DNA from: Eledone cirrhosa
Lineage: Eukaryota
DNA length: 64,000 bases
NCBI GenBank assembly: GCA_964016885.1
Contig: OZ024741.1
Location: 86,304,001 to 86,368,000, forward strand
Reading direction: 5' to 3'
Part shown: positions 22,367-62,537 of the stretch, piece after piece
How the letters are laid out: the number at the start of each line of letters is the position of its first letter
Position numbering within the stretch: position 1 is the stretch's first letter
Program-made: the position numbers and the translations under genes
Notes under the pieces: model-generated
Told to the model about the DNA's origin: nothing
The model's input: the letters and a program-made list of their open reading frames with translations, nothing else
Databases searched by the model: none

Positions 22367-24253
22367 TCATCATCATCATATCTTGTCGCGCCAGGGCCGT
22401 ATCCATTGAAGTGCAGCGTCGTTTGCCGCAGGGGCACTCAGCGCAGGTGGCCATTCCCCACTTGTGGAGATTGTCTCCAGTTTTGCCGTTTTGGCTCTGT
22501 TTAGGGTTACCTAGTCCTTTCTGCTAAGAGATGTTCCATTGGGGAAGCTTTCATTTTGGCTTGGTAAGGCCGCGTTGGGTGGGCGGCGGTCACTCTCCTT
22601 CCACTTTTCCAACCTGTAAGCTGCCGATTGTGCATGCTCCAGGCTATCCACGGTTAAGAAGCTTTTTCGTGATTTTAATCGACTTCTTATTTCCTAGTGG
22701 CCATAGAGTGGATGCCTGGGATTGTGTTGTTTGTACTGTTCAGTTTTTGCGTTGACCTCTCGTCGTATGTGGGGCGGTGGAATGTCGGCAAGAGTGTATA
22801 CGGCTGGAAGGGGAGTTGCTTTTAATATTCCGGTGATCATCCGGCATGATTTGTTCAACTCTGGGTCAACTCTGTTTGCATGGCACGACCTTGCCCATAC
22901 TGGTGAAGAATATTCTGCGGTGGAGTAGCAGAGTGCCAGTGCTGTTTGCCTCAGTGTTGTGGGATCTGCACCCCAGCTGGTGTTGGTTAGTTTGCTGAGG
23001 AGATTATTTCTAGTTGCCAGTTTACTTTTAAGTTTGTCTATGTGTTGTTTGAAGGAGAGCGTTCTATCAAGGGCAACTTCGAGGTAAACTGGTTGAGGGT
23101 GGTTTTCCAGTTCATTGTTGCCCCATCTGATTTTTAGTTTCCTGTTTGCTTGGTGGTTGTTAAGATGGAAGGCACACACCTGCATTTTGCTGGCATTAGC
23201 GTTAAGGTACCATTTTTTGTAGTATGCTGAGAGATTTGTCAGGGCATTTGATAGTCTTTCCTCAATTGTGTCAAAGGAGCCTGACTGTGTTGCGATGCAG
23301 AGATCATTCGTATATATGGATCTACGAATATTGTGGAACTGCAGCTGGTCATTTGTGTAAATGTTGAACAGCATAGGGGCCAGCACAGAGCCCTGTGGGA
23401 GTCAGTTGTTCTGGACCCTCCACCTACTTTGCCTGCCATCCATCTCAACAAAGGATCGCCGATTGATGAGCAGTGACTCAATTATGCGGACTGCAGTGGT
23501 GTTCCGAACTGTTTGGGCCACCTGTAAAAGAAGTGCTCTGTGGTTCACGGTGTCATAGGCAGCTGTGAGGTTGACAAAGACTGCTCCAGTCATTTGTTTG
23601 GCCTCAAAACCTGACTCAATACATCCTCGATGTATTGAGTCAGGTTCAGTACTTGACCGCAGCATGATCAGCCGGGTCGGAAGCCAGTCTGGTCTGGAGA
23701 TAGTTGTTCTTCTACAATAGGGGGGACAAGCAAGCCATGATCATGCGCTCATATAGTTTGTAAAGGGTGCACAGTAAGGATATTGGTCGGTAGCTCTTTG
23801 GAGATGCCGGCTCTTTGCCTGGTTTCAAGAGAGCCACCACTCTAGCTCTTCTCCATATCCTTGATATTTGACAGGCTGATGTACAGTTGTTAAAGAGTGA
23901 CAGGAGCCACGTTTTCGCCATTTCTCCAAAGTGCAGTATCACCTCCACTGTGATGCCTTCCCGGGTTTAAGGTGTTTCATAGCTGCATGCAGCTCTTCCA
24001 TGTTAAATGGTTCAAAGTTTTCGTCAGAGTTGTGCATGGCACGGTTCATGTCCTGTTTCATTTCCCTTAGGTATCCCCTTTCTCTATTCTTGGGCTTACC
24101 GTTGAGTAGCAGTTGGTGTGCCACTTCGTTTGGGGTAACGGCAGCTATTCTTGGTTGTGGTTTCTTTTCAGGGCTTAATTTTTTGATGGTTGCCCAGGCG
24201 TTTTTGCTGTTATGAGTCATATCGGTGTTGGTTATGACTTCTTGCCAGCGCTC
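22367..24253 (-). mobile_element. 5'-truncated LINE of probable Ingi/Vingi-like (I group) type, with a (TGA)n tail; frameshifted
   Basis: SYRPISLLC, AVFVNLTAAYDTV, PQGSVLAPMLFNIYTND, YTND in place of YADD, LDRTLSF, WGADPTTLRQTALALCYSTAEY..PVW and PPHIRR. The clade assignment is from memory. Confidence 0.75.
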
Positions 24254-24565
24254 TAATATTGAAGTTTTAAAGATAATAAAATTTAAATGAACCATTAATT
24301 CTTAACATACTGTACCACATGGAACCACTAGCAAGCCATTCTTCAAAAATGTAAAACAGTATAGTGATTGCATCATATCAAAAGTTAATCTTTAGTTTAC
24401 TTCAGATTTTCACAACAATCTGTCCCCTAGTAAAGATACTATAAACATTTGAATTAATAAAGCTGTTAAGAATTAATTTTTTGTTTCTTTTGCTAAATTT
24501 TTCTTCTATTTTTGTTATTTTTCTTTCAACTTTAAAAAAACAAAAACATTTTTTTTACTCTCTAG

Positions 24566-30508: not shown

Positions 30509-31544
30509 GTAAGTTTATTTCTTATTTTTTTCCTTGTGAAGGCATGTAGCCTTGTGATTAGGGTCTTGGACTCACAACTATAAGATCATGGATTTGATTC
30601 ATGGACCAAGCTGTGCATTATGTTCTTGAGTATGACACTTCATTTCATGTTAGGATCAGGACATCATTATTAAAACTCCCCAAAAAATTTCTATGAGATA
30701 CAAACCTCATAGGAAACCAGCTAAACCCCTCCTATCTCTCCAATTAGAAGTTGACAGAACTATGAAATTTTAATTTCTTTTGTAGTTTTTAGTTTCTTTA
30801 TTGCAAATAATCAGAAAGTTTTTGCAGATTACATCAACAAACACCAGGAAAAAAAAATCTGAATAAAAAATATTAATAGTTAAAATCGTGCAAATTAATA
30901 AGGAAGCACTTGTTACATTCATGTGATCTTTACAAATATGTATAAACTTAACACTTTATGGAATGTATGAGGGCCGAGATCTCTGGCGTTATGCAGTAAT
31001 ATAGAAAACACAACCTCCCCTGTGCACAGGTTGAAGCATACATCGAGTATTCACCTCCCACGCCCAACCACCCAACCCTCACCCACATCCCTAGATCTAC
31101 CTCCCCAACCCAAGTCTCCAGCCCATACTATAAAGTGGTCGTTTTGGTGCCACAACAAAAAACGTCCAGCTCACACTGTAAAGTGGTCCTGTCGGTGTCA
31201 CGGCAAAAAGCACCCAGCTCACACTGTAAAGTGGTTGTGTGGATGTCATGGCAAAACGTACCCAGTACACACTTTAAATGTGGTTGGCATTAGGAAGGGC
31301 ATCCAGTAGAAACCAAACCGGAATCAGTTCTGTATGAGCAAGACATGGTCACCTGATTTGACTTGTCTCACAACGGGACAACTTATTTAACCCATGCTGT
31401 TGTGGAAAAATGGATGTTAAACAGTGATGATGATGATGATATACATATTGTTTTAAGATATATTCCTTTTGTTCATAGCAAGACTGAATTCTTTAACATA
31501 CAATGGCTTCACTATATAAGTAGATACAGAGATAGTATTATGCA

Positions 31545-31614
31545 TGACATTTGTACATTTTCTATGTACTATACATACACCTTTGATGAGTTGTAGTGCC
31601 CCTGAGCACTGTAC
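31545..31614 (+). mobile_element. 3'-terminal 70 bp of the CR1 family at 38267-40367, lacking its last ~9 nt and tail
   Basis: Close match to 40272-40342 (..TATGTACTATACATACAC.TTTGATGAGTTGTAGTGC.CCTGAGCACTGTAC). Confidence 0.85.
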
Positions 31615-33484
31615 CGTTTTCAGGGGTTGGATCGCTGCGATGTACAGCGACATCTGCTCAGTTGTGAGGGTGAATGGTCACCTGTCGCAGCCGTTCGGCA
31701 TCATGCACTCGGTCCACCAGGGTCGTCCTCTCTCGTCCGTCTTGTACGTATTCGCTCTCAAGCCGTTACTGTACAAACTGGGGGCGATGAGGGGCATCCC
31801 ACGCGAACTAGGATGCGGGAAATCCGAGTCGGCTTACGCCGACAACGTCACCGTGGTGGTGTCTAGCACCAGACACGTCCAGATGCTCGGCACCACTCTC
31901 AAGGAATACGAAGCGGTGACAGGAGCATAGATAAACCAGGAAAAGTCGGTAGGCTTGCAGCTCGGCACCTGGAGAGGCAAGCCCATGCCGCCCGACAGCG
32001 TCGTGGGGCGTTTGACGGGGGACCGGTTAAATTGTTCAGGGTCTGGTTCGGACCGGACTTCCAGATGGAGAAAAACTGGAGTGAGGTGACGAGCAAGGTG
32101 GCCTCCCTCACCCAGAAATGGGCCGAGAGGAAGCTGTCCCTGAAAGGCCGGGTGGAAGTGGCGAATGTGTACTTTGCATCCGTCATCTGCTACTGCCTCA
32201 CCATCATCCCTTGCCCCGGCCCAACTCTCACCAAAATGGAGCGCCTCCTCTTCCGCTTTTTAAAGGGACGCGCTCCCATGGTCAGATGATCCATCTGCTG
32301 TCAACACCAGTTGGGTGGAGGACTGGGCATGCCATGGCTGAAGATGCGCAAACATGCGCTGAGGCTGCGACATCTCTGGTGCTTCCTTGACGGTGAACAG
32401 GTGTGGTCGCCGTTCGCCAGGCACGTTTTCCCACAGCTCGTCTCCTTGACAGAGCTGCAGTCCTGGGTCAGGAAAATACCGAGGGATAGCGCTTGGAAAC
32501 TGGAATGTCTCCAGGCGCTCACTGCCCTCTGCCAGCTGGGCACCAGTATCAGTGGAACATCCACCTAGGCATTCTATAGAGGACTAGTGGAGGGGAAGAG
32601 CGACGACGTTCTCGGAGAGATCCTGGGCGTCGAAGAAGATCAGCTGTTTGCTCTCTTCCGGAGAACTTTCAGCCCAGGGCCTATGGATAACTTCCAAAAA
32701 TCCCTGGTCTGGCAGTGCTACTGGGGAGCGTTGCCGGTTCGAGATAAGCCCTACAGGCACGGAAGTGCCGTCAGCCGAGATGCGCGCAGAGCGACGAAAC
32801 CGTCGTGCACGCACTCGTTCAGTGCCCGAGCATTGCTGACTTGTTGAGCTATGTCGAACAGTTGCTGTTGAGTGTAGGACTGATCCAGTTATTGACTGAG
32901 TCCATTGTGCAGATGGTCTCGCCGTCTTCCTTCGAGGAGGAAGGGCAGGCGGTTTTCATCTGCCTGGTGGTCATGGCGAAAGAGATTGTGTGGTGGACAA
33001 AGTTGAAAGGGTTAAAGACAGACACTTTCCTCTTTGGCGAATCCCAATTAACTTTTTCAAGTTTCACTTGAAGAGGAAAATCAGGGTGGAGAGGGAAGTG
33101 CTGCCTTCTAGCAAGTTTGTTGAAAGATGGGTGAATGTAGCGAGAATAGTCCGAGTGAACGGGACCGCTCTGAATATACGCCTGTAGTTTGAGAAATGGA
33201 AAAATTGAGAGAGGGCGCTTGCCCTGGTGGTCAGGGTGGTCGTGGTCTTTTGTGTGGTTTTCGCCACGAGTCACCCTCGGAGGTTTCCCCCCTATTGCAG
33301 AATTTTTCATTGTTTCAATTTTCATTTTTATTGTTTATATATATATATATATATATGTTTCTGTCTTTTTTTTTCTTTTCTTATATAAATAATAAAAATC
33401 CTTACATGCACAAAACCCACATCGTACCGTCCTGTGCCGTCTGTAATGTTTTTCTTGATGTCAGCCCTTGTGGCCAATAAAGAA
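31615..33484 (+). mobile_element. Tx1/L1-clade LINE, copy A: 5'-truncated within RT; frameshifts and stops
   Basis: GWIAAMYS, QGRPLS, SAYADN, WFGPD, LSLKGR and LGMPWL. The 3' UTR ends AATAAAGAA, followed by (ATT)9. Confidence 0.92.
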
Positions 33485-33739: not shown

Positions 33740-36700
33740 CAACGACCTCCGGTCGCTGGAAATGGATGTGATTGCCGTAAGCGAGACCAGAATTTCCGAC
33801 GCGCGCACTAGCCCCCATTTTCGACGACTATCGGATCTTCACATCTGTTAGCAGGCCGGGAATGGGGGGTGGGGTGGCAGTGCTGTTTAGGAAAGGACTG
33901 GATCTCGAGGTAAGGTCGATCTTCCGGGACCCGGACGGTAAGTTGGTGGTCTTGGATGTGAGCAGTAGCGAAGGTGGTGCCTTTAGACTGCTGGCCGTCT
34001 ACGCCCCTACAGGGGCCGGATGACCTGACTTCTTTAGGCGCCTGGAGACCTTTCTGGGTACGTCTCGCCCTTTACTGTTAGCGGGGGACTGGAATGGCAT
34101 CTTAGACGCACGCTGGGATTGTGTGAGAGTAGCCGATAGGAGCGGGGGGTGCAAAAGCCTCAAGCACCTACTCAGCCAGTTCCAACTGTCTGACAGGTAT
34201 CGACTAGATTTCCCCAATGTGCAAGTATACATGGACCAACCGAATGGGGTCATCTAGATCGTATATAGACAGAATCTTCATTAGGAAAATAGATAGAAAT
34301 AGTGTGGGCTGTCCACTTTTTAAAACGGTCGCCTATTCAGATCACAAATTTGTGATCTGTACGGTCGACCTAAATAAAACGCGTAGGTTAGGACCGGGTT
34401 ACTGGAAGCTGAACATGTCATTTCCGGCACGTAAGGCTTACAGGGACCGAGTCAACAAGTTAGTTAAGCAAAAGTTGACAGGGGGGATCATCAACAACAG
34501 ATGGTGGGGGGGCTCTCAAAAGAGAGATTAGAGTAACTTCGATAGAGTTCAGCAAAGAACTAGCGTTATAGAAAGGAGGGGGAGCTGGTAGATAAGTTAG
34601 ACGAGGCTATTTGTAGTGGCATCGCAACTGACGTGTAGCGGCGAGAATGGCATTAGACCATTTCTTCAATGCCAAACACGAAGGTTGCATTGTCAGAGCT
34701 AAGGCACGTGCGCTGAGAAACGAGGGAGCTAAAGCTGTTCAATGGACCCGTGTGTCGGAGGCGCAGCGTCGTAATAAAACCACAATTCGGTCTTTGGCGG
34801 ACCGAGACGGATACGAGATAAGCGATTCCAAGCGGATGTGTGAGGCCTTTCGCCAGCACTTTGTTCGGTTGTTCAGGGAGAGTGGCGAGTCAGAGAGAGA
34901 ATAGCGGATTTCAGTCCCTACCTTGACGGCTTGCCGCGTATCTCGACGGTCGACGCTGAGCGCTGCGAAAGGCCGATTACTTCAGCCAAAATTCAGGACG
35001 CCCTTGTCGGCTGCATGAGGCGCAAGTCACCCGGTTTGGATGGCCTGCCCTACGAGCTTTACGTAAATATGCCAGACTTGTTCTCCGAACTCCTTGAAGC
35101 ACTCTACTGTAACTGGCAGCAGAATGGGAGTATTCCCAGTTCTGTGAGCAGGGGAGTGGTGACGCTGATAAGGAAAGACGAGAACAAGAGGGATACATTA
35201 GACAACTTCAGGCCCATAACTCTGCTCAACACAGAGTTTAAAATTTTGGCCAAGGTGTTAGCAAAGAGATTGGCGCTTGTTGTCGAGGATTTGGTTGGGG
35301 AGGCGCAAACTTGCGCAATCCCAGCCAGATCCATACACGACAATCTCCACCTCATGCGATACATCATAGAGAGGGTAGGGTGTAAACCTGGCTTCGGTGG
35401 GGCACTGATCAATCGAAAGCATTCGATAGGGTCGACCATCGGTATCTGGAGTTTGTCCTCAAAGCAGCTGGCTTCAGCCCTGTCTTTAGAAGCTGGATCG
35501 TTGCAATGCACAGCGGCACACGCTCGGTGGTCAAGGTTAATGGCCACCTCTCGGAACCATTTTGGCTCTCCCGATCGGTCCGTCAAGGGTGCCCTCTCTC
35601 TTCCCTTCTGTACGTATTGACTCTCGAGCCTTTACTGCGGAAGCTGGAGCTGTTGCAGGGCATCCCGCTCGAACTGGGACGTGGAAAGGCGGTGTCGGCT
35701 TATGCGGACGACATCACCGTGATGGTGTCGAACACCTCAGAAATCGAGGTGGTCGACACCTTATTGAAGGAATATGAAAGGTTGACAGGAGCCAAACTTA
35801 ACCCGGAAAAGTCGGTGAGCTTGCAGCTCGGAACCTGGAGAGGCAAGCCCATGCCGTCCAACAGCGTCGTGGGGCGCTGGACGGACGGACCAGTAAAGTT
35901 GCTCGGGGTTTGGTTCGGACCAGACCTCCAGGTGGAAAAGAATTGGGACGAGGTAACGAGCAGAGTAGCCAGTCTCACCCAAATATGGGCTGGGAGGAAA
36001 CTATCACTGAAAGGTGGCGAATGCGTACATCGCGTCCGTCATCTACTACCGCCTAACCGTTGTGCCTTGCCCCCGTCCGCGCCTCGTCAAGTTGGAACGG
36101 CTCCTCTTCAAATTCTTGTGGAGGAGACAAGTTCCGTTGGTGAGGCGGTCCATCTGCTGCCAGCACCCTCTACACAGAGGGCTGGGCATGCCGTGGCTAA
36201 TGATGGGCAGACATGCGTTGAGGCTGCGACATCTCCAGATATTCTGCCTCAATGGTGAACAGGTGTGGTCGCCGTTTATCAGACGGGCCTTTCCGCAGCT
36301 CATTTCTTTGACTGAGCTGCAGTCCTGGGTCAAGAAGAGACCGAGACTGGGTGACTGGCACCTGGAATGTTGCCAGGCACTCACTGCCCTCTACCAAGCG
36401 GGCAATGCGATCAGTGGAACTTCCACTCTCGAGTTCTATAGAGGATTAGTGGTGGGCAAGTGCGATGACGCACTCGGAGAAGCTTTGGGCCTTGACGAAG
36501 TCGAACTGACCAGTCTGTACCGGAAGACTTTTGAGCCGGGGACGATGGACAATTTCCAGAAATCCCTCGCTTGGCAGTGCTACCGGGGGGCACTGCCGGT
36601 TCGGGATAAAATCTACAGGCACGGAAGTGCTGTCAGACGGACCTGCCCAAGATGCGCACAGAATGACGAAACCGTTCTGCACGCACTTGTCCAATGTCCG

Positions 36701-37324
36701 TGCATTACTGACTTGTGGAGTTATGTCGAACAGCTACTGTCGCGTGTGGAACGAATCCGGCTATCGGCCGAGTCCATAGGGAAGATCGAGCCGCCACCTT
36801 CCTTAGGTCAGGAAGAGCAGGACATTTTCCTCTGTCTGGTGGCAGTTGCGAAAGAGATTATATGGTGGACCAGGTTGAAAGGACTAAAGACAGACACTTT
36901 TCTCTTCGGCCAATCCCTCATCAACTTCTTCAATTTTCACCTGGAAAGGAGGGTGAGGGTGGAGAGAGAAGTGCTGCCCCCCAGTACATTTGCTAAAAGG
37001 TGGTTGAATGTGGTGAGAATGGCTCGTGTGAATGGGCCTACTCTGACCATGCGCCTATAGGCTGGCTAACTTGAGGAGAGGGGTGCTCTCCTGGGTGCCC
37101 TAGAAGCGCAGGGTGGTTCAGGATTGGTGGGGTACCCGAATCACCCCAGGGTTGTCCACCCCCTATCGGGGAATTTATTTTGTTATATTTATGCATAGTT
37201 TATTTTATATTTTTATATTTTCATTGTTAAATTAGTCTTGCCATTGTGCACTTTTACTCGACCTTATTGTAAACCCCCACTGTCCCTGTCTTTGTATTGT
37301 CCCCTTGTGGCTAATAAATGAAAT
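33740..37324 (+). mobile_element. Tx1/L1-clade LINE, copy B: nearly complete ORF2 with several frameshifts and stops
   Basis: Begins NDLRSLEMDVIAVSETRI, then AGDWN, SYIDR, YSDH, KSPGLDG, FRPITLLN, RQGCPLS, AYADDIT and CPRC..ETVLHALVQC. Ends AATAAATGAAAT followed by C(ATT)9. Confidence 0.93.
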
Positions 37325-38266
37325 CATTATTATTATTATTATTATTATTATTACTTTCATTAGTTTTATGACAGTTTTGAAAGTGTGTGGTCGAGTTGGG
37401 TTAGGGTATTGGATTAAGGTTTTAAGTTCAATTTCTTGACTCATTGGCACGCTGTGTTTTTGGAATGTATGTAGTTGCATATATATACAAATTAATGTAT
37501 GTGTCAACATATACACACAGACTAATGTATGTAGCTACATATATGCACTGACTAAGATATGTAGCTGCATATATGCACAGACTGATGCATGTAACTGCAT
37601 ATATATATAGAGAAATTGAGAACATATCAGAGATTTGCCATTTTTGTTGTTTTTCATTTTATTTTTTTCATTTTATTAAAATCTGGCACAACAAAAGATT
37701 TATATGTAATTACCATTATTCTAGAAGTTGTTTTATAACGATATAAATAATACAATGGTGAGTACTTTAAAAAATTTGAAGTTTTCCACTATATTTATCA
37801 GTGTATTAAGATTGCTTAATCCTTTTAATACGGAACTGTCCATTTATTTAAATTAAAATCTTCCAACATAATTTTATATAAAAACATTTATTAAGTTACT
37901 ATCATTAGAAATATCACAAAAGAGTTGAAGCAATGTAAAGTTAATCGCTTACTCTATTCCACTCTTATTTTCATTCGCTCACTTTTTCTTTGCCAGTCAG
38001 TACAGGGTTATAAACACCTCATCCTTCCTTGTTTGTTGTCTGCTTGGCTGTCTCCAACTTCTTCACTGTGACAGTAAACAAAAGCTCTAAGCTCATTATT
38101 ATATGTGATGAATTTACATTGTATTTATTTGTATCATTCAACAGTGATGACAATATATGACTGAATGAATTGTTACAAGAGTCAGAGAAACATTAAGAGA
38201 TTTCAAAATAAAATTGTTCTAAATTGTAGCTATGCCCATAAATGATTTGTTTCCTTCATCTAGTAT

Positions 38267-40367
38267 GGATAGCGTGTGCAGCATCAGTGCCACGTAAGCA
38301 GGAAAAAAAAACCTACCCCAAAAGTGCAATTTGGGAAACTTCAGCGGTCCAACTTGCCAGGAAAGAACGTTGGAACGCTGAACGGGAACATAAACTGCAT
38401 AAATCAGATGCCAACAGAAAAAAGCGGAATAAATCTTCTAACCATCTCAAGCAAGTGACAAAGAAGGCAGTGCTTGAATTTGAACAGTGCATAGCAACCA
38501 ATCCTGACAGTAAGGTGTTCTGGAAATATGTTCATTCAAAGCAGAGACCTCACTCTCCAGTTGGTCCTCTTCGCAATCCCCACACAAGCCAGGTCACTGA
38601 CGATCCCAAAGAATGCGCAGAACTCATTGCTGAGTGCTATGCAAGTATTTTTACTGTCAAAAACCAGAATGTACCATCTCCACCATCTCTAACATCAAAT
38701 TCCATAACAACTATGGCATTTACACCTGCAATGCTGCGACGTCACGTTAAGAATAAGCGCAACTATGCCTCCCCTGGTCTTGATGGTGTTACATACCTGC
38801 TTCTCAAACGTGGCGGGTATTTCCTTTTGCGCCAGCTTTCTTTCTTCTTTCAATACTGTCTCAACAATGGTGCTACTCCGGAGCAGTGGAAAACTGCCAG
38901 TGTCATTCCCCTGTTCAAAAAGGGCAATCGTATGTCACCTGTCAACTATCGTCCAGTCAGTCTTACTAGCTGTATGGCCAAACTGATGGAATCCTGTGTC
39001 AGAGAAACACTTTGGGACTTCTGGAGCTCTCACACCGGCCCTCACAGTTTGGATTTATCCCTAACTCCAGCTGCTGTGATCAGCTTATCGAGTTCCTTGA
39101 AGACATCACCCGGATCACTGACAGCAGCTCATGGGTGGATGTTGTTTACCTTGACTTTGCTAGGACTTTTAATTATGTGCCACACAAAAGACTTATGGCA
39201 AAACTCTCTGCAATGAGTGTGAGGGATGATCTTTTCGACTGGTTGAAATCCTTCATTCTCAGCCGAAAAGAGGTAGTCACGGTACTAGGAGAGCATTCTT
39301 CACCATATGAGATGTCATCTGGTGTACCACAGAGATCTGTTCTTGGTCCCGTTTTGTTTGTGGCATATATTAATGACATAGATGCCAACTTACAGAATGC
39401 CACGGTACTGAAATATGCAGATGACATCAAGCTGGACCTTGAAATCAAAACGACTGATCCTGAAATCTACAACTCTTTCCTACAATCAGACCTGGACACA
39501 ATGCAGCAAGGGATCACAGACTGGCAACTGAAGCTGGCTGTGGATAAGTGTACCACCATGCATTTTGGGAGGAAAAATCCAGTGTCCACATACTCCCTCC
39601 ACAACACTGATATCAAGAAGTCCTCTTGTGAACGTGACCTGGGCATTACTGTCAGCAGCGATTTGCGTTGGACAAAGCACATCTCTAAGATTGTCAAGAA
39701 GGCTGAGGGTGTCTTGGCATCACTCAGCAAGACCTTTGTTAGCCGCTCTCCAGCCATCTATTTAAAACTGTATACAGCTATGGTACGACCACACTTTGAA
39801 TTCGCATCATCAGTCTGGAACCCCTATCTTGCTCAGAACATTGACCGCCTGGAAACTGTTCAGAGATGTGCAACCAAGCGCATACCCTCCATCAGACACC
39901 TACCATACGCTGAACGCCTTGCTTCCCTGGGCATGGATTCATTGAAGCTCCGACGTCTGGCAATGGACTTGGTGAAAACCCACAAAGTTATTAACCATTT
40001 CGCCAACAACAACCCTGAGCACCTTTTTTATCTCCATGTGTTTAACACACATGGACATGCCTACAAAATCAGAAAACAGCACAGCTCCCATGGCTTTCGT
40101 AAACATTTTTTCACGCTCGGAGTTGCTGAAGCATGGAACAAACTGCCTGCGTCAGTTGTTAGCTGCCGAGACACTCATGCTTCCTGAAATACGCCAAAAC
40201 TACACCTGATGTACCCCTTCCATACACATGGACACATGTGTATATCATGACTCATGCACTGTTCATTTTCCTGACATTTGTGCATTACCCTATGTACTAT
40301 ACATACACTTTTGATGAGTTGTAGTGCACCTGAGCACTGTACACAATATTTCATTATTATTATTATA
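38267..40367 (+). mobile_element. CR1-clade LINE: 5'-truncated ORF2 with one frameshift near 39030; (ATT)n tail
   Basis: SPGLDG, PLFKKG, NYRPVSLTS, QFGF, YLDF, GVPQRSVLGP, YADD, ERDLG and HFFT..VAEAWNKLP. Candidate TSD TAGTAT at 38261-38266 and 40368-40373. Confidence 0.92.
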
Positions 40368-50833: not shown

Positions 50834-51023
50834 ACTTTACCTGATCAGCAGCATGTTTATTTTTTGGATGGTCATCAAGGTGGTATAGAAGAAGAAGGAG
50901 TTCTTATATCAAAGATTCCTTTTACTCATCCGACCAATCTACCAAAAATTTTGTCTTATCTTCGTCAGCAAATGCTATTTAACACTGCTATTACCAGTTG
51001 CATCCGGCCCTCTGCCAAAAAAG
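50834..51023 (+). CDS. MED1: MED1 exon (190 nt): TLPDQQHVYFLDG...GVLISKIPFTHPTNLPKILSYLRQQMLFNTAITSCIRPSAKK
   Basis: ctgtttcag| and G|gtaaa; resembles 'LPGQQHCYFL...SKITFQHP...IRHQVAYNTLIGSCV'. Confidence 0.95.
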
Positions 51024-51814
51024 GTAAAATATTTTGAACTTATTTACTTCTTTATAAATTTATGTCTACATGTTACATTTCTAGATTTAGAAAAGACATT
51101 TCAACTCATTTAAACAAGTGGTGCTACATAAACCATATACCCCGCTGCATAGTGATTTGACAGGTGAAAATCAGTTTAGTGATTTGATAGGTGAAGAATT
51201 AAGTATGATACTTTAGAAAGTATGAGTTGGCTATTTTGGAAAAACAGATGGGAAAATGATGACAATGATTGAAATGTGTTGGCCTTTAACCCTTTCACTA
51301 CCATATTTCAAATAAAATACACTGTCCATGTGTTACAATGATTTTTGATAATAAGTAAAAATTAGGAAAGATTTAGTTAGTTAACTGATTTTTTTCATTA
51401 TTACAACGGAGTTAAGAACATATCTTAACAAAAGCTATTTTACAGTAAATTATGTTGGAAAGTTAGAATTTGAATATGAACTCTTCAGAATTAGACTTTT
51501 ATTATTATAAAAGTACAGGTGATTTCAGGCTGGTTCTTATCAAAAGCGTCAAGGTTTTTTCTATTTATTTAAGTGTAGTAGTTTTTTTTACCAATCTTTA
51601 TTTATCGAGTGGTTAAGTTAACTTCTTGTCTCAACACCTTTTTTTAAAAAAACTGGTGGTGTTGTCGTGGGGATAGACACGTGTGTGCAGCATACTTCTG
51701 CACAGTTTACTAAATTTCACTCAAGGTATATGTTAAACCAGGGTTATAGTAGATAACTTATCAAGTCCCTGCATGAAGGTTCTTCTATTGATCATAGGTA
51801 TTCAATGTACTTTA

Positions 51815-51968
51815 AGGTAGCGAGTTGGCAGAATTGTTAGAATGTCAGATAGAATGCTTTGCGGTATTTGTTCTGGCTCTCTGTTCTCTACTTTCAAATC
51901 CTGCTGAGGTCAATTTTGCTTTTTATTCTTTCGAGGTTGATAAAAAAAAGTACCAGTATTGGGGTTGA
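51815..51968 (+). repeat. tRNA-headed SINE with a Meta-domain-like segment; second copy at about 52310-52475, minus copies near 8640, 16530 and 45200
   Basis: GAGTTGGCAGAATTGTTAG head, TTCAAATCC B-box-like motif, GAGGTCAA.TTTGC...TCGAGGTTGATAAAA..AGTACCAG. Confidence 0.55.
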
Positions 51969-53904
51969 TTTTCCTCTATATCTCTTTCTCATTTCCTCTC
52001 TCTCTCTCTCTCACTTTTTCCTTCTCTTGGAGAAATCTGCAGTATTCAGACATGGGCTCTACCAGGATTTAAAATGCCCTAGAAACGCTGTATGTCAATA
52101 TGGTTCCCCATTGACTCCCTCGTTCACTGTACTGGTGTAGTATTTTGTAAAGAGTCAAATGTTAGAAGCTTAATATAAAATAAAATCCTTTCATGTGGGT
52201 CTGATGATACTTTAATTTTCATCTTTCTGATCTTAGAGGGATCTATGAAATACAGGCTGTTCAGACAAGCCATTTTAGCCAAAGATTTTGCTACAATTAA
52301 AAGCAATAGGGTAAGTAGTTGGTTGGCAGAATTGTTAGAGCATCAGGCAAAATGCCTTGTGGCATTCCGTTACAGTGCTTTACACTCTTTGTTCAAATCC
52401 TGCTCAGGTCAACTTTGCCATACATCCTTCCTAGAGTCAATAAAACAAAATGCCAGTCAAATATTGGGGCCTTATGTCTAAATTAGAAAGCACAATTAAA
52501 AGCAAGATCATGATTTCTTTGTTATACATATAAACAACTTAAAATTTTAATTTATTGGATGGAAATTATCATACAGTAGTTTTTAAGCTATGTTGTTTTG
52601 TTGAATATGCTGCTACATTATTTTCTGTAACGATTCATCCAAGGCGTCCATATTATCCAGTATTTAATTATTTCAAAGAAATGAAATGAAGATATTCTTC
52701 TTTGTTGTATTCATCATATGTCCTCCCTAATACCAACCACATAACTGAATGTATTTTATAGTGGTACCAGCAGTAGTAACATTGTCAATTATTGATTTGA
52801 CTGAAGAGCTCTCTCTGCTCTATGGGGAGAAGGTTAGAAAGCAGTCTTGTCTGAAGAGAGCTGTATTTACAGAGTGAGGGCAGAAATAAATAGAGTGGCA
52901 AGTATGACGATGTGGGGTGGGGTGGCATAAGCGACAGAAAGATAAGTGTAATGTGATGTGAGTATGACAAGTGTGAAGATATTCTTTTATAATATTTTAC
53001 TGGTAATATGATACATAGTAAAATGAGCCCATCCATCACCTTGATTATATCATTTTCTGTGGTAACAGCTACCAAGTAAGCTATTCAGTATCATAGAAAT
53101 AGTCTCATTCTCATAATAAGAAAATTATTTATCAGCATGTTGATCATTAATAGTTGTTTAGTTTAATTATGAAAGATTTATTAGAAACAGATCTGCCATT
53201 GATTAAAATATTTTGGGCCAAGGCTTATTTTCGCAAGAAGCAGTTACATCATAACCCCTTTGAAACCATAATCTGATATTTTGCAGATCTATCCAGTTCA
53301 TCATCATCATCATTATAAATCTGCTTTCCATATTGGTATTGTTTGGTTGGGTTGTCATGGTCCAAGACCAGACAGGTTGGAGCGACCTCATCTCGTTCTT
53401 GTATTCCATGTTTGGTATGGTTTTTACAGCTTGATCTCCTTCCTAATGCCAACCACCTTACAGGGGTACTGAGTACATTTTTTGTGGCACCAGCACTATC
53501 CCTTTACAGAATGTACCTCATGTATTTTATTGTGGTACCAATACTAACACTTTACAGGGTGTACTGGGTGCATTTTGTTGAGGTACCAGTCACATGTTCG
53601 TTTAGACTGAAGGTCCTCTCAAATCTTATGTTGTCTTCATTCGATCACCAACATTGGTGTCTCACATTTACTTTCAGTGATATTTTGGTTGTAATTGGGC
53701 AGCTCTTTTGACATTCTGTCATCTATCCTATTTCTTCAAGTAGTTGGCTTTAGTCATACATATAACTGGCATTGGACAGGCCACCATCTGAGTGTCTGAA
53801 ATTGACTTTGTGAATATTACTGGATTAAAAGATACTCTGCAAGACAGCAGTTTTGAACAAGCAATTGTAGATATTGAAATAAAGATTGACATCATCATCT
53901 TCTT

Positions 53905-54070
53905 TAGTGTGGGCTGGGAGTATTTTATCATGGCACCAGCTTTACCACTTTACAGTGTGAGCTGGGTGTATTTTATCATGGCACTAGGTCTACCACTTTA
54001 CAGTGTGGACTGGGAGTATTTTATCATGGCACCAGCTCTACTACCTTAGTGTGGGCTGGGTGTATTTTAT
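53905..54070 (-). repeat. Tandem ~47-bp units derived from the RTE 3' UTR repeat
   Basis: AGTGTGGGCTGGG.GTATTTTATCATGGCACCAGCT.TACCACTTTAC, about 3.5 copies. Confidence 0.75.
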
Positions 54071-55323
54071 GACAAATGAAAATATGTAAGTAATGGAGGC
54101 AGCAGGGAGGACAAGGTTGTTGTGATATTTGGATAACAATTAATGGTGAAATTTGATATAATTACCCACTCTGACATAGCATTTTCAAGTGAAGAACATG
54201 AATGGTTTTGCAGAATTGTGAAGTAGAAACCATATTCCACAGAATGGGCCACAATGTAATCTATATGCTCAATAAAAATTACTTGTACAAACTGCTTTTC
54301 CAGTCATAATTTATTCCAACCAAACAAATGACAGTGGAAAGGGTATCACAAACCTGAATGTCTTTCTATCTCTGATATTTGAACACGAATTAATGTTAAA
54401 CAGGAAGTATATAATATAAAATCATGAATTTGGGTACTCCCCAGATATGGTTTCAGAATAAAGTCAAGCTGTGTCCTTCATATGGCAGGCTATTGTTATC
54501 CTACATTTGCATTGTTCAATATTAAAGGATAGCCATTAAACGATTTCCACATTTTGGAATGTACTGTAAAAACTGAAAGCTGTCATAAATAGAGATTTAT
54601 TTCTTCCAAATGGTATGAAATAATGTAACCCAAATGAAATCACTAGTTATTGTTAGTTTTACAGCATTGTTTATGAATATATTTATTGTACAGAACATTA
54701 TAAAGTTAACTATAAATAAATGTTTATTTTCATTTATACATCAAGAATGGGAAACAATGTTGGACATGTTTAAACCTTACTCAGATTTGCTGAAAATGTT
54801 TGAATGTCTCATTAAATTAGGCAATATTTCACTTTAATTGACATTGGAAAAGAGAATTTAGAAATTAAAAGCTGTTGTTCATATAAATCCCTTAACATTT
54901 TTTATACCAAACTAGATCTGTTTATTTTACAGTGTTTATATTTATCTAAATACCTTCCATCATAATTCTATATCAGAACCGTTAAGTTGTTCCAAACTCC
55001 AGCTTAATAATAAAAAAAATAGTTATATTACTAAATCCCTTCAAATTATTGTATATTCTCAACATATGAAAAGCTATGTCTTTCATTAAGTCCGGTCTAC
55101 CATAACGGAATGAAGAACAAAGAAAATATTTCCAAAATGGCGAAGCAACTTCTACCTCACAATGGTTAGCATAAGTCTCGCGTTGTTATCGTGTGACTTC
55201 AATTAATTGTTGAAGCAAGGGAGATCATTCTCAAGAATTTAGGATGAAGATAGATAATTATATGCTAGCACGCGCACATATTACTTAAGCTGATGTATGC
55301 ATATAATCCAAATATTGTGTGTG

Positions 55324-55362
<39 letters not shown>

Positions 55363-55372
55363 GTTGTAATAG

Positions 55373-55474
55373 AATGAAAACGAAATTTCATTTCTCACTC
55401 TTAGTACGGCACTTACTTAAATGTAAGTATGTATGTATACGTACATACATATATGTATACAGACGTACAGTAGC

Positions 55475-55529
<55 letters not shown>

Positions 55530-56193
55530 CAGGTACACATACATATATGTACGTATCAGTTTAGCGGACGTTTATTATAACGCCCGCTTTGTCTGTTTGT
55601 AAACAAGCGGACAGCCTGAATTTATGTCGAAAGTATATACTTTCGAACGTTCAACCATCTGGCAGAAGGGTATACGGTGCTGATGATAGCTAAGAAGCTT
55701 GAAACTAGTACATCGTTCCTGTGTCAGTGGCGTTATAATAAACATCCGCTAAACTGATACGTACATATATGTATGTGTACCTGTATGTATATATATATAT
55801 GCATGCTACTGTACGTCTGTATACATATATGTATGTACGTATACATATATATATATGTATGTGTGTGTATGTGTATGATAATAATATGGAAAACGAAGAA
55901 TCAGTGATGCATCAAAACATTTATTAACGTATGACAATTGTTTCTCCGGCGAACAGTTCGAGATAAGATCTATTTGTGGATCAAACATGACTGGATTCGC
56001 AAGTTCCAGTGATACGTCTAGCGACTTCGAAGCAAATCCTCTTTGCCGGACAAACAATTGTAATACGTTAATAAATTGTGTTTCAATGCATCACTGATTC
56101 TTCGTTTTCCATATTATTATTATACTCTGCTCTGAAGGAGCATAGAGTGCTCAATCGGCATACCACCTATGGACGCATCGAAGCAACCTTACT

Positions 56194-56263
<70 letters not shown>

Positions 56264-56380
56264 GGAAAAAAAATGAAACGAAATTTCATTTCCCACTCTT
56301 AGTACTGCTGTTACTTAAATATAAGTATGTACACGTACATACATATATGTATACAGACGTACAGTAGTATGTATATATAT
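55373..56380 (+). mobile_element. Structured, hammerhead-containing, terminally redundant element (retrozyme-like or Penelope pLTR-like) embedded in (TA)n
   Basis: Direct repeat 55373-~55480 / 56272-~56375; inverted repeats 55433-55584 / 55729-55846 and 55878-55953 / 56042-56120; the hammerhead lies in the first loop. Confidence 0.6.
55667..55720 (+). ncRNA. Type I (minimal) hammerhead ribozyme
   Basis: Stem I ACGGUG (55674-79) pairs with CAUCGU (55711-16) and extends past a UAU bulge by AGGG/UCCU. Core CUGAUGA at 55680-86. Stem II is AGCU-AAGA-AGCU with a U.U closing pair. GAAA at 55701-04, palindromic mini stem III ACUAGU, and cleavage triplet GUA (cut after 55710). Confidence 0.8.
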
Positions 56381-58370
56381 ATACATACATACATGCGCAC
56401 ATATATGTACGTGTACATACTTATATATATATATATTATATGCATATAATCATTTTCACCATTCTTGCATGGGTTGAACAGGTTATTAAAGGCCAAGTCA
56501 ATACTTAATTGAAGCTATTGCCTTCTTAGATAGATTCGTGAACCAGACTTCAATTCATTCCGCTTTAACTTTTTTTCTTTTTTTCTTCTTATAATTAGAT
56601 GTCTTTTCTAATGCCAGTCACTTTACAGAATGCACTGGAGGAATTTTATTTTGTCAATATTAATGCTAAAATACTGCGGAAATAAAAATTACTCTGGGCT
56701 AATATACTAGAGTTATTACAGAGTTTGTGATTTATTCATAGTTCTGCACAGCCATTAAGATGAGAGGGAGAGGTTGCATGTTTGGTGGGGCATAGAGGAG
56801 TACTCAGCATCATAAAAGTAGTAACTTCAACATTCCCTGTAATACGAACCTAACAGTCCTGTTTAGATTTATGTACTTGTATATGGTATATGTGTATGTA
56901 TTCGTATATGTACACACTATAAACTTTTGGTTCTCCGTGGTGGCCACAGTGGAGTTAGTTATCTCCCTTCATTCTAAATTCATGAGAATCACCTCCCCTG
57001 AATTGAATACATGAAACAATTTGCGTGTGTGTGTATGTATGTATATATGTATATATAGTTTTGTTTTTTCACATTCATATATGCGGTATTACCAACCATA
57101 TTTAGATGTGATTAAAGGATTAAAGTGAAAGCTTTTAAATACTAATTGCTGGCCAATAGCAGCATATAAGAATCATCATCATCATCACCATCATTGTTTA
57201 ATTACCGTTTTCTCTGCTAATAAAGTTATGACATGTCATCACAGACCGGCCAGTACTCTAGGTGGTCTGGGAGCCTACTCTCTACTGAGTGTATTTTATC
57301 ATAGCACCAACACCAGGGAAGTTGTCATGTATTAGCATAGCTGAAAAGCCTTGCCAACACTGTTTGATAGGTTTTCTACAGCTAGCTCCGTCATAACACC
57401 TACCATTTTACAGGAGCATACAGGATAAAAGTTTATTGTGTGTGGTTCATCAACTTTAAGGAAGTAGTCATGTCTATGGCATGACTGAAGAGACCTCCAG
57501 ACGTGTACTGAGTATGTTTATCATGTCAATCATCAACACTAGAGGGGTTATCATGCTCCTAATAGATTATCAATTTAAGCACACAATCTCTGCATTCACG
57601 CTTAGAAGGGATCTTAGAAAACTGAGATATTCTAAAATCTAACATTTCAAAATATTTCAGGCAAATATAATATTCAAAATACAGAAAGATGTAATGGATG
57701 ACCGAGCGAATGTAAAGTAGAACTTCAGTTACATGCATACAGTTATAATGTATACAGTCAATGTTACATGATTTGGTGAATAGAATTAGTGCATACATTT
57801 GAATAAGCTGATGGTGTATATAACTTAAATAAGCCGAATTCTCAAATTAATAACTATTAGTCTGGTCTCTTCCTATTCTCATTGTTCAGGGTCAGTGACC
57901 ATGGACAATTGCACAAATGCTCAGCTATTTGATGCTGTATGTTCATGATTCTTATTAGGAAAAATATGACATTGGTGGGTCCTGAATCCACAAGCTGGCT
58001 ACCAAGCTGCAGCGCACCGATCTACATTACAAGGATGAACCCTTTGGCCACCTTAAAGCTTATTACCAATATGAATGAGTCACCTCTACCTGAGTTTTGC
58101 AGTCAGTTATCCTTCCCCTAGACAGATTTCTAACCACGATTAACAAGCTCTATCTACTGTTTTTATTATTATTATTCAGTATTGGTAAAGCAGCAGACAC
58201 CATGCTTTACTGTATAGTTATGGCCCTTTGCGTTCTGAGTTCAAATGCCCTTCCCAATGCCTATATATATGTGTATATATATACGTCTAAACCCATGCTA
58301 GCATGGAAGATAGACGTTAAACGATGATGATTATGTGTGTGTGTATGTGTATATATATATATATATATAT

Positions 58371-58925
58371 GCAATAAAGTTTTGTGTCAAAAACGCTGCA
58401 GAAACCTATGAAATGATCAAAACTGCTTACCGACTAACTTTCATGAGCTAAGCACCTGTTTTCTGTCGGACCAAGAGAGTGCCTAGAAGAAACATTCTGA
58501 CAACCCAAGAAAGCCAGGCAAAGCAAGTCGACTGGGAAGTTCATGATCTTATTTTTTGACAGCAAGGGCATCTAGATCAACTGGGTCCCCCGCGGCCAGA
58601 CAGTCAACAAAGAGTACTATGTAATTCAGAAAGCGATATTGTCGCAAGAGGCCAAAGCTCTTCAAGTCTGGTCAGTGGCACCTGCACCAGGACAATGTTT
58701 CCTGCCACAAATCTATCCTGGTGACCAGCTACTTGGCCATTATAGGAATCAATCCTCTATACAGTCCAGACTTAGCCACATGTGACTTCTGGATGTTTCT
58801 GAAGCTGAAGGAGAAGTTCAGGGGTATCCGCTTTGAGGATGTGGAGGAGTTGGGGGTCGTGACAAGCACATTGGACACCTTCACTTTGGAGGATTACAAG
58901 GGGCCCTTCCAGAAGTGGCTGGAGT
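58371..58925 (+). pseudogene. Mariner-type transposase remnant, internally deleted, no TIRs, flanked by (TA)n
   Basis: AIKFCVK.AAETYEMIKTAY, FFDSKGI, WVPRGQTVNKEYY, WHLHQDN and YSPDLATCDFWMFLKLK. Confidence 0.85.
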
Positions 58926-58937
58926 GTGGGTGTGGCG

Positions 58938-58977
<40 letters not shown>

Positions 58978-59706
58978 CTTAGCCCACACTGTGAAGTGGG
59001 CGTGTAGGTGTCATGATAGAAAGCACCCAGCACACACTGTCAATGTGATTGGCATTGGGAAGGCCATCCAGCCATACAAAACCAGCCAGAAACACTCTTA
59101 TATGAGCGAGATACAGTCACCTGACCCAACTTGCCTCTAAGTGGGACAAACCTGTCTAACCCATGCTAGCGTGGAAGATAGACGTTAATCGATGATGATG
59201 ATGATGATTATATATATATATATAATTGATGGAAGCTACGGTGTAGGCAGACGCAGAAAAACCTGGGACGATTTGATAAATTGCGACCTTACACACTTAC
59301 ACCTCTCTAAGACAATGTCACTGGACCGAGATCTTTGGCACTACACTATTATAGAAGACCCCACTTGCCTAAGTACAAAGCGAAACCTACAGTCAGTAGG
59401 CACCTCTTAACCAAAAATACACCCCCATCTACACCACCCCTTTCGATGTAGAGTTATGTTGGTACCACAACATCTAGTCCTAAATAAATGAGGTCGTGTA
59501 GGTATCACGACAAAAAAAAACACACAGTCCACGCTGTAATGTGGCCGTGTAGGTAACACGGTAAAAACCTCCCAGTCCACACTGTAAACGTGGTTGGTGT
59601 TAGGAAGGGCAGAAAGCCCTATATGAGCAAGACAACCAATCTTGCCTCAAGTGGGACAATTCCCGTCTAAACCCATGCTAGCATGGAAGATAGATGTTAA
59701 ACGATG

Positions 59707-59749
<43 letters not shown>

Positions 59750-59909
59750 TGCCATGACTAAATTATAACTATCAATAGTCAAGGTATGTCAAGCATCAAC
59801 TTATTTTATATGATGAGGATGTATTGTTGAAATAGCTCAGTATCTCTGAAATATGTATAATAAAATATATTTGATCACATGAATGTCTATATTTATTAAT
59901 ATTTTGAAG

Positions 59910-59968
<59 letters not shown>

Positions 59969-61165
59969 AACGAGTCCTACTCGTTCTTATTACCCACTCT
60001 ACTACCCTAAGTATTGAGTACTTTGGTGCGTTATGGTCCACCTGGTTCCTTACCACATTTCCTTCGTTATATATATATATATATACACACATAAACATAT
60101 ACCTTACTCTTATAACTTTTTATTCTAAAAATAATCCTATTAATATGTGGTTATTTGTTTCTTAGTAACTAGAACTTCTAGTTATTGATATTTTTATTAC
60201 TGAATTAAGCTTCCATAATTTTTCTATTGTTTTTCTTAATATATTCTATTACTATTATTCTTATAATTCTCGTTACTTCAATTAGTAAGTATTATTAAAC
60301 TTATAAGCTCAAGAATATAGTATTAGAGTGTAAAAGTCAAGCTAAATATTTTTTAGTCACTGCACATATCTTTACTAATTAATTTTAATTGCGTGTTTAG
60401 TCTTCCATAAAATTTTAAGGTTTTCCCAACTGCATTTTAAATTTGTTTACATTTTTGGAATGTAGATGTTTGGCTATGTACTCAGTAATTAATTGTTATT
60501 TATGTTGTTTGATAGATTCTGAAGTAATCAATACAGAAGAAATGTATTTTTTACTGTATTGAGTGAAACATTCATAAATCAATTAAATTATCTAATGTAA
60601 TTTAATCCTGGTTATTTTTATTCATTTTGTGATATTGTAAAACTACTGTGAATGGAAATTTACTGATTGTATTAAACTCTGAATTGTCTTTTATCTATCT
60701 TGCTGTGGACCATAAAGTCACGTTTGAGCTTTGAATTATTCTTTGCCTTTATATGGTTGTATTATGAACTCATCTAAACACACGCACACGCGCGCACATA
60801 TCCAATGGTTGAAGCCAATCAACATCAACCTTTTTGCCATTTTGTTTCATAATCTTTCTTGGTTTAAAGCCTCAAATCACTTGACTATGTTGACAACTTT
60901 CTGCTTGTCTCATTTGTTAATAAAAATCGATTTGGTTTTCATGGCCACCTGATGGATATGGGACTAGTTGGGTGGCTGGCTGACTGACATTGTCAGGCTT
61001 ACATTGCGAATGATACACATTTCTTGTGTTTGATGACCAAAATGTTTATCGCATCTATATTCGATACAAAAAAGTATGTATTCATATTTATTACCACATT
61101 TTTTAATGAAACCCTCAGTATATAAGTGAGGAATTTAGAGGCGTTACTTTTATTTCATTATTAAG

Positions 61166-61592
61166 GGCTGAAGACGAGCACTTACCTCTTCGGTGATGCC
61201 CTGATTAACTTTTTCAAATTTCATTTGAAAAGGAAAATCAGGGTAGAGAGGGAAGTGCTCTCTTCCCAGCATTTTGTTGAAAGATGGGTGAGAGAGGCAA
61301 GAATGGCCCAAGTGAATGGGCCTACTCTGAGTATGTCTGTAAATTAAAGGTGGAAAACTGGGAGAGGGCACTTACTCTGGTGGTCAGGGTCACTGTGGAT
61401 TTTTAATGGGCTTTCTCCATGAATGTCCCTCGGAAGTCTCCCCCGTATTGGGGAATTTTTTATTGTTATTTTTTTGTTACATCCTCTGTTTTTGTTTTTT
61501 ACACGCAGAAATGCCCATTTGTACCATCCTGTATTGTCCTGTACTGTCCTTAATGTCTACATTATGTAAACCTTTGTGGTTAATAAAGAAAG
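61166..61592 (+). mobile_element. Tx1/L1-clade LINE, copy C: short 3' fragment with a 10-bp TSD
   Basis: Matches the 3' ends of copies A and B (INFFKFHLKRKIRVEREVL..., AATAAAGAAAG). CATTATTAAG occurs at 61156-61165 and 61593-61602. Confidence 0.88.
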
Positions 61593-62441
61593 CATTATTA
61601 AGATGGCATTTGGAATATTACTTAAGATGTTGAAAAATTTAAATTTAAATAGAAACCCTTTAAAATGGGTAGTTTTGCTTAATTTATATTAAGAGTCCAT
61701 TTGGGGGGGGGGGGGGGGCGTATTTAAAAAAAAAACAACCTTTATACACAGTATCAGTATATACTTGTATATGTCACCTGTTTCAAGTGTATAATATTTT
61801 GGCTTCAGTATTTACATATATCACATGTTGCATTTTACAAATACTGTTTGCAGCATAGCTGGTTATATTTAAGTGGAGATTAGGATTATGGCTAGCTGAT
61901 GAAGTACTGCATATATATTTTTTACACACATGGATGACTTCTATGTATAAATTAATGAAAACTGCATATTGTCATAGGAGCATGTATTTAGCAAGAACAG
62001 AATTTTGCAGTTTTGGGGGGATTTCATTTTTCATGTAATATCATTGATATACATTTGTTTGCAGTGATAATGTTCATATAGACTGAGTAGTGGTATGAGC
62101 AATCTGCCTAACAAGCTTAATTATCACTTGGTTGTGTGTAGTGAAATTTTGAACCTTGATAGATAAATTACATGCAGTTTTTTATACTTTTTTTTCTTTT
62201 TTAATTAACATTCCCCCCCCCCCCCACACACTTTTTTAAAGCAACAAAAAGGTGGGGCTTATCTTCAAAAGTATACTTGATAGTTATATGCTTTAACATA
62301 TTGAGTATTCCTGCATTCTTTAAAGTGTTGGTTATTAGGATTAGAGGAACAATAAAATTTAAGATACACATCCTTATTGCTAAATTGAAATCTATTTTCT
62401 CTTACTGTTTTTACTAATGAAAATTTCTTATGTATTTACAG

Positions 62442-62537
62442 ATCTTAAAAGTGCACTCGTGTTTGAGTTATCTGCTTTGTCTTTGCATCAAGTTAATGTA
62501 TCATTTGAACACCCTCTACAAGATTCCATGGTTACAG
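62442..62537 (+). CDS. MED1: MED1 exon (96 nt): DLKSALVFELSALSLHQVNVSFEHPLQDSMVT
   Basis: gtatttacag| and G|gtaatt; resembles 'FEVCPLS...FSVSFQHPVNDSLV'. Confidence 0.92.

Follow-up and report, generated by a model that had tools for sequence, protein, structure and literature searches.

The window, that is, the whole 64-kb stretch of octopus DNA analysed here, covers part of the MED1 gene. Six MED1 exons were mapped on the + strand, and the gene was identified by Pfam Med1 matches on two of the three exon pieces scanned and by 95% identity to an Octopus bimaculoides MED1 protein. The intron 51024-62441 has GT-AG ends and its flanking exons join in frame on the + strand; thus the claim of the preliminary description, that a hammerhead ribozyme lies in sense orientation within this MED1 intron, was upheld. 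An open frame of 1,547 codons, starting near window position 65,536, is likely the last MED1 exon, and we take it to resemble the MED1 C-terminus. Broken or partly open LINE-type retrotransposon frames were also observed around and within MED1, at window positions 252-3215 (− strand), 22694-24300 (− strand), 31520-33300, 33780-37060 (+ strand) and 38242-40187 (+ strand). The features that concern the intron are listed below, with their basis in brackets.

50834-51023, + strand: MED1 exon upstream of the intron (Pfam Med1; tblastn with P0001; in-frame splice)
55324-55360, no strand: (TA)n flank, likely the insertion target (sequence; survey of 3' ends)
55358-55626, − strand: inverted 5' copy of the retrozyme unit with a tail of ~60 nt, without ribozyme (unit mapping)
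55629-55845, + strand: part of the insertion in direct orientation, truncated at its 5' end and lacking ~82 nt of the unit after 55729 (BLAST against the natural units L023 and L022)
55659-55727, + strand: ribozyme with distal stem I extension, comprising the bulge UAU and two further helices (constrained fold; pair counts across subfamilies)
55674-55716, + strand: type I hammerhead with stem I (6 bp, one G·U), core, stem II and palindromic stem III (sequence; strict descriptor; Rfam HH9 below threshold)
55680-55686, + strand: catalytic core CUGAUGA, N7 being U or C among subfamilies (sequence; subfamily comparison)
55687-55700, + strand: stem II (4 bp, loop AAGA), its U·U closing pair being the family norm (54 of 11,492 matches non-U at the first position)
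55704-55709, + strand: ACUAGU palindrome, predicted to form a 6-bp stem III between two ribozymes (sequence; energy model; retained in 133 of 142 dispersed copies)
55708-55711, + strand: GUA triplet and predicted scissile bond 55710/55711 (hammerhead consensus register)
62442-62537, + strand: MED1 exon downstream of the intron (tblastn with P0001; in-frame splice)

On the + strand the motif at 55674-55716 begins with the 5' strand of stem I, ACGGUG (55674-79), followed by the core CUGAUGA (55680-86) and U55687. Stem II is made of AGCU (55688-91), the loop AAGA and AGCU (55696-99), after which come U55700, GAAAC (55701-05), UA, GUA (55708-10) and CAUCGU (55711-16). These letters agree exactly with the earlier claim that all conserved type I elements are in register: CUGANGA, GAAA and NUH stand at their proper places, there are three helices and helix I is open. 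Helix II is closed by U·U instead of a purine-pyrimidine pair. Stem III consists of one A-U pair over the palindromic loop CUAG, and we take the cut to fall at 55710/55711, where the established hammerhead consensus register places it. In a constrained fold, stem I continued beyond a 3-nt bulge (UAU) with AGGG:UCCU and then another 6-bp helix, so that both the G·U pair of stem I and its extension past the bulge, as noted before, were recovered.

A loose hammerhead pattern was uninformative as a chance test (3 matches seen, 10.2 expected) and a strict type I descriptor was used instead. On both strands of the window the descriptor matched once, at 55674-55716, and none of 500 dinucleotide shuffles gave a match. 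We concluded that the motif is real and far above chance level. The proposed comparison with Rfam gave a weak match only. The best family in the clan, Hammerhead_HH9, scored 18.1 bits (E 0.02 on 106 bases), where its gathering score is 52, and the motif reached the gathering score of no Rfam hammerhead. Rfam matches to miRNAs and snoRNAs around 55.3-56.5 kb were all far below their gathering scores and were rejected; they result from (TA)n inverted repeats.

Genome-wide, a 35-letter core pattern in which stem II was left free matched at 5,857 + 5,635 = 11,492 places, and its reversed control at none. This number is a lower bound, because subfamilies with CUGACGA are excluded by the pattern. 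A query of 201 bases gave 1,518 candidates, and in 33 of the best-scored 40 listed the ribozyme region of 101-102 nt was 100% identical. The ribozyme in the MED1 intron sits in a truncated copy of a mobile repeat that is very abundant, and it is not specific to MED1. The repeat unit is tandem, protein-free and 416-560 bp long with one ribozyme each, and the tandem spacing was 441-557 bp. Natural units of three subfamilies measured 441, 511 and 416 nt, with a GC content of 32-39% and an internal (TA)n tract; folded as circles, 65-71% of their bases were predicted to be paired. Two or more consecutive complete units, each with one type I hammerhead, were found at the level of the family, the copy in the window being a truncated monomer. 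The unit has no coding capacity, and in the tandem runs read, unit follows unit without an ORF. In one array, 40 matches to the pattern lay within 40 kb. Among the first 100 matches listed, a count by hand gave 43 with a same-strand neighbour within 700 bp and 57 without, therefore lone copies are common.

In the unit, the octamer ATGCAAAT lies ~80 nt ahead of the ribozyme in each of the three aligned subfamilies (positions ~322-330 of L022), and it may resemble a promoter element. Long decaying tandem arrays with higher-order repeats were seen at G000:C2:60.56-60.60 Mb (L061-L064) and G000:C3:12.27-12.32 Mb, the latter with many units carrying G at the cleavage base; both arrays look like retrozymes turning into satellite DNA.

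The preliminary description had made its reading depend on whether paralogous copies conserve the core with its GUH triplet and the covariation of the stems. All 12 core positions were intact in 130 of 142 dispersed copies, compared with 44 of 58 copies in the large array (200 de-duplicated copies in total, a sample biased towards those recovered by ribozyme-containing queries), and ACUAGU was kept in 133 of the 142. Differences between subfamilies spare the core and are located at N7, in loop II, in the bulge, or where they preserve pairs; one pair of stem I is G·U, U·G or A-U depending on the subfamily. Conservation of the core was borne out. The covariation part stayed thin: among 11 hand-picked related variants 96.7% of 209 cells were paired and two pairs showed a two-sided change, but independent events are few, and that number of two-sided pairs is also attained in 358 of 500 shuffles.

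The U·U pair at the base of stem II had been suspected as a lesion that leaves this copy slow or dead, with the expectation that position 55687 might normally be A. This was contradicted by the family. The equivalent base is U in 11,438 of 11,492 pattern matches (99.5%), so the family consensus is U and decay by mutation was ruled out as the origin of the mismatch. Only 6 of the 54 exceptions have A, thus U55687A could not be regarded as a reversion. About 15 of the 54 form a small subgroup in which C·A replaces U·U, and among the genome-wide matches changes at this closing pair almost never give a Watson-Crick pair. The axolotl ribozyme HHR_Amex2 has the identical U·U mismatch; its monomer cleaves to 22% within 1 h, and its dimer far more efficiently (PMC7229834).

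The insertion in the intron is composed of two parts in opposite orientation. By BLAST, 55629-55729 is 100% identical to the natural units L023 and L022, after which the alignment jumps: the direct part starts at unit position ~360, runs through the ribozyme to 55729, resumes after the deletion of ~82 nt and ends at ~55845. In the fold model it pairs with the inverted copy at 55358-55626 as a long hairpin. The insertion is flanked by microsatellites and lies within a pile of repeats. Next to it, at 55873-56125, is another high-copy element, which is older and is bounded by long terminal inverted repeats (2,378 candidates, the best with 80-88% identity); no hammerhead core was found on either of its strands. 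A further inverted fragment of the retrozyme family, 83% identical to the L023 unit and without a ribozyme, was observed at 56267-56441 on the − strand.

Described features of Penelope-like elements are a 5' copy in inverted orientation, a tail confined to one end and the targeting of microsatellites (PMC8557442), and the tail has been traced to two internal starts of reverse transcription (PMC11167929). In the octopus family we found partial tandems, the inverted 5' copy and a one-sided tail. An inverted copy stood beside the direct run at 29 of 38 loci mapped to the natural unit, from which the array loci L011-L016 and overlapping loci had been excluded, and at 10 of 15 loci in the position-ordered subset, which were not picked by likeness to the window. 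Of 54 3' ends, all but 2 fell in two fixed classes ~60 nt apart, 24 of them near unit position 224 and 28 near 285. By eye approximately 50 of the 54 run into (TA)n; the strict script rule counted 26, because the alignment ends are offset.

Penelope ORFs with a C-terminal GIY-YIG domain are abundant in the same genome (10,597 candidates, of which 150 were scored; ORFs of up to ~900-1,100 codons), so Penelope-like elements are present beside the retrozyme. An autonomous element carrying the retrozyme unit as a consistent terminal repeat was not found in 30 GIY-YIG and 16 long-ORF loci; 4 of these 46 loci hold a copy or fragment of the family, with no fixed placement beside the ORF. The linkage of repeat to ORF was read in ~200 of the ~11,500 family copies. 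A tail shared with one Penelope family was considered and rejected: a single locus out of 30 scored above all of the 200 shuffles, and did so at another site, whereas the remaining loci failed to do so. The exact candidate tail motif was present in 2 of 124 loci. One Penelope family (L112, L113, L116, L122, L108) was observed to carry a minimal hammerhead of its own, which is located ~390-400 bp past the GIY-YIG ORF and differs in its palindromic stem III.

To rank the possible structures of the ribozyme, folds were compared by energy; the model omits tertiary contacts, Mg2+ and other ions as well as proteins, and therefore gives no rates. In the lowest-energy ViennaRNA fold of the lone copy the core CUG pairs with UAG of stem III and stem I is shifted, and the forced active monomer fold lies at +7.5 kcal/mol, whether or not the flanking inverted repeat is included. 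In five of five natural tandem pairs the double hammerhead was modelled at +0.2 to +1.5 kcal/mol above the minimum, one non-standard L022 pair being left unforced, and two separate active monomers at +15.0 to +17.6 kcal/mol. Two tethered copies of the MED1 ribozyme stretch reached the double fold at +1.2 kcal/mol. The energy model for the dimer supports the earlier assignment of stem III to the palindromic, dimer-working kind of Penelope-like elements and retrozymes. These energies agree with the rule, known from the literature, that monomers are hindered when helix III is short and palindromic (PMC4209133; PMC6765202). We therefore expect dimers in tandem transcripts to be the working form of the family, and the lone MED1 copy to be nearly silent. 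Cleavage of only one in nine predicted retrozyme dimers is reported by Li et al. (2026, bioRxiv 10.64898/2026.07.22.740005).

In the 204 kb examined around MED1, the motif at 55674-55716 is the sole ribozyme of the family on the + strand; the nearest other one lies ~92 kb upstream on the opposite strand. No partner ribozyme was found within MED1, and other loose matches in the 204 kb were non-family and were dismissed. As modelled, the lone intronic ribozyme likely cuts rarely, and the MED1 pre-mRNA would be left uncut, probably because there is no partner anywhere in the gene. Introns that are cut are often still spliced, since the exons stay tethered to the polymerase. We also looked for a footprint of cleavage in the genome. 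In C1 and C2 together no pile-up of 5' ends was seen at the cut site (44 breaks, versus 45 and 25 at two control offsets), true junctions at the cut site were found at 2 of 30 loci, and thus no genomic footprint of cleavage was detected. The 3' ends ~225 and ~285 nt past the cut site, together with the missing 5' pile-up, fit circular or uncut multimeric templates and are no proof of cleavage.

Judged from its genomic sequence, the octopus family falls under the genomic definition of an animal non-LTR retrozyme (PMC7229834; Li et al. 2026). It has in common with those a protein-free tandem unit of a few hundred bases with a GC content below 50% and one type I hammerhead, thousands of monomer and multimer copies, a well-paired predicted circle and Penelope elements in the same genome. 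It differs by its unit of 416-560 bp with a variable (TA)n tract, compared with 150-450 bp quoted for animal retrozymes, and by insertions with a Penelope-type tail and an inverted 5' copy, neither of which is described for retrozymes in the available parts of PMC7229834 and Li et al. 2026. Approximately 43% of the Xenopus retrozyme copies lie in introns (Li et al. 2026). Among the axolotl ribozymes, HHR_Amex1 shares with the octopus ribozyme a 1-bp helix III with a palindromic tetraloop. HHR_Amex2 shares the U·U at the base of helix II, and its stem III is made of 2 bp and a tetraloop. Cleavage is weak for the monomers of both and good for their dimers (PMC7229834). The octopus ribozyme combines the weak points of the two, therefore it may depend on dimerisation even more strongly.

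Penelope pLTR hammerheads share with the octopus family the palindromic helix III, the dependence on dimers and partial tandems, and the elements also have the inverted 5' copy, one-sided tail and AT-rich targets (PMC4209133, PMC8557442, PMC11167929). In contrast to these, the octopus family has no linked ORF, its helices are canonical (6 + 4 bp) instead of minimal, and its tail measures ~60 nt compared with 30-40 nt. The amniote hammerheads HH9/HH10 and the CPEB3 ribozyme are single-copy and conserved across species, unlike the octopus ribozyme, which is a young member of a mobile family of 11,500 copies. They are self-cleaving and located in introns in sense orientation (PMC6765202; PMC10919898); the octopus motif is likewise sense and intronic but predicted to be inactive alone.

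We hold it for quite probable that the MED1 site represents an isolated, truncated member of a high-copy tandem repeat of the octopus, each unit of which carries a single hammerhead; that this repeat is likely a non-LTR retrozyme mobilised by Penelope-like elements; and that the MED1 copy is predicted to cut the pre-mRNA rarely or never. The ribozyme would then likely not regulate the gene but be carried along as an ordinary transposon passenger. In the family, tandem units would be transcribed, and two neighbouring ribozymes could join their ACUAGU palindromes to a double hammerhead and cut out unit-length RNAs, which would probably be circularised by a host ligase. A Penelope reverse transcriptase/GIY-YIG endonuclease may then nick (TA)n DNA and copy the RNA from one of two internal starts. 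Having no partner, the MED1 copy would stay in the inactive fold, with the core CUG on UAG of stem III, and leave with the spliced intron.

The tail, the inverted 5' copy and the (TA)n flanks are features of Penelope elements, and Xenopus retrozymes are related to pLTRs (Li et al. 2026). The repeat could accordingly be the pLTR of an unsampled autonomous Penelope-like element and the MED1 site a truncated Penelope copy instead of a separate non-autonomous retrozyme. We consider this unlikely, as unit follows unit without an ORF in every tandem run read, and the sampled Penelope families have other 3' regions, one of them with its own, different minimal hammerhead. That the ribozyme was domesticated to regulate MED1, in the manner of the vertebrate intronic HH9/HH10 or CPEB3 ribozymes, would be in line with its sense orientation in an intron of an essential gene and with its weak Rfam likeness to HH9, but appears extremely improbable. 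The 100% identity over 101 nt to many dispersed copies means that the insertion is young, the site lies within a repeat pile at a microsatellite, and 11,492 matches are not those of a single-copy ribozyme. Moreover, at a density of one family copy per 261 kb an intron of 11.4 kb has a ~4% chance to hold one, therefore many octopus genes should carry such a ribozyme.

The retrozyme reading also has to be weighed against noticeable cleavage of MED1 pre-mRNA as an unselected side effect, by a protein-assisted monomer or together with free retrozyme RNA in trans. In its favour are the intact core and the sense orientation, with the predicted cut site 6.7 kb ahead of the 3' splice site of the intron. 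In addition, the flanking inverted repeat leaves the ribozyme domain undisturbed in the fold model, and two copies of the MED1 ribozyme stretch come within +1.2 kcal/mol of the minimum once tethered. A Penelope ribozyme was protein-assisted in vitro (PMC11167929), therefore the lone copy could be helped in vivo. Against this stand the monomer penalty of 7.5 kcal/mol and the lack of cleavage by single minimal motifs (PMC4209133), and we regard a noticeable share of cut MED1 transcripts as distinctly unlikely. Pairing in trans would require stable stems to be opened in both RNAs and strands to be exchanged, and the cost of association is not part of the tethered model. It is very doubtful that free retrozyme RNA acts in trans as the missing half of the double hammerhead, by pairing ACUAGU with lone sense intronic copies. 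If it did, the level of one mobile RNA would switch on the cleavage of many octopus pre-mRNAs including MED1, and a genome-wide network of ribozyme-cut introns would be gated by a retroelement.

The family appears to be an undescribed, young octopus retrozyme of 11,500 copies. No description of it was found in the literature on octopus and cephalopod hammerheads, retrozymes and Penelope elements; subscription papers and repeat databases were mostly outside this scope, and the family may already be catalogued. A term search of the main text and one supplement of the O. vulgaris repeat paper (PMC13282606) gave no mention of hammerheads, and 235 hammerhead-1 matches are reported for the giant squid (PMC6962438). 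The MED1 locus itself is ordinary and the value of the family is modest. The two fixed 3' ends, the tail and the inverted 5' copy give genomic support to the proposed, unproven movement of animal retrozymes by Penelope elements. With many near-identical copies and a gene annotation, selection against sense intronic ribozymes becomes countable, as does any stronger depletion of tandem (active) copies compared with lone copies. Finally, other hammerhead-like motifs were observed to recur in unrelated loci (L080, L088, L089, L101, L105, L116, L118, L121), therefore the genome likely holds many ribozyme families.
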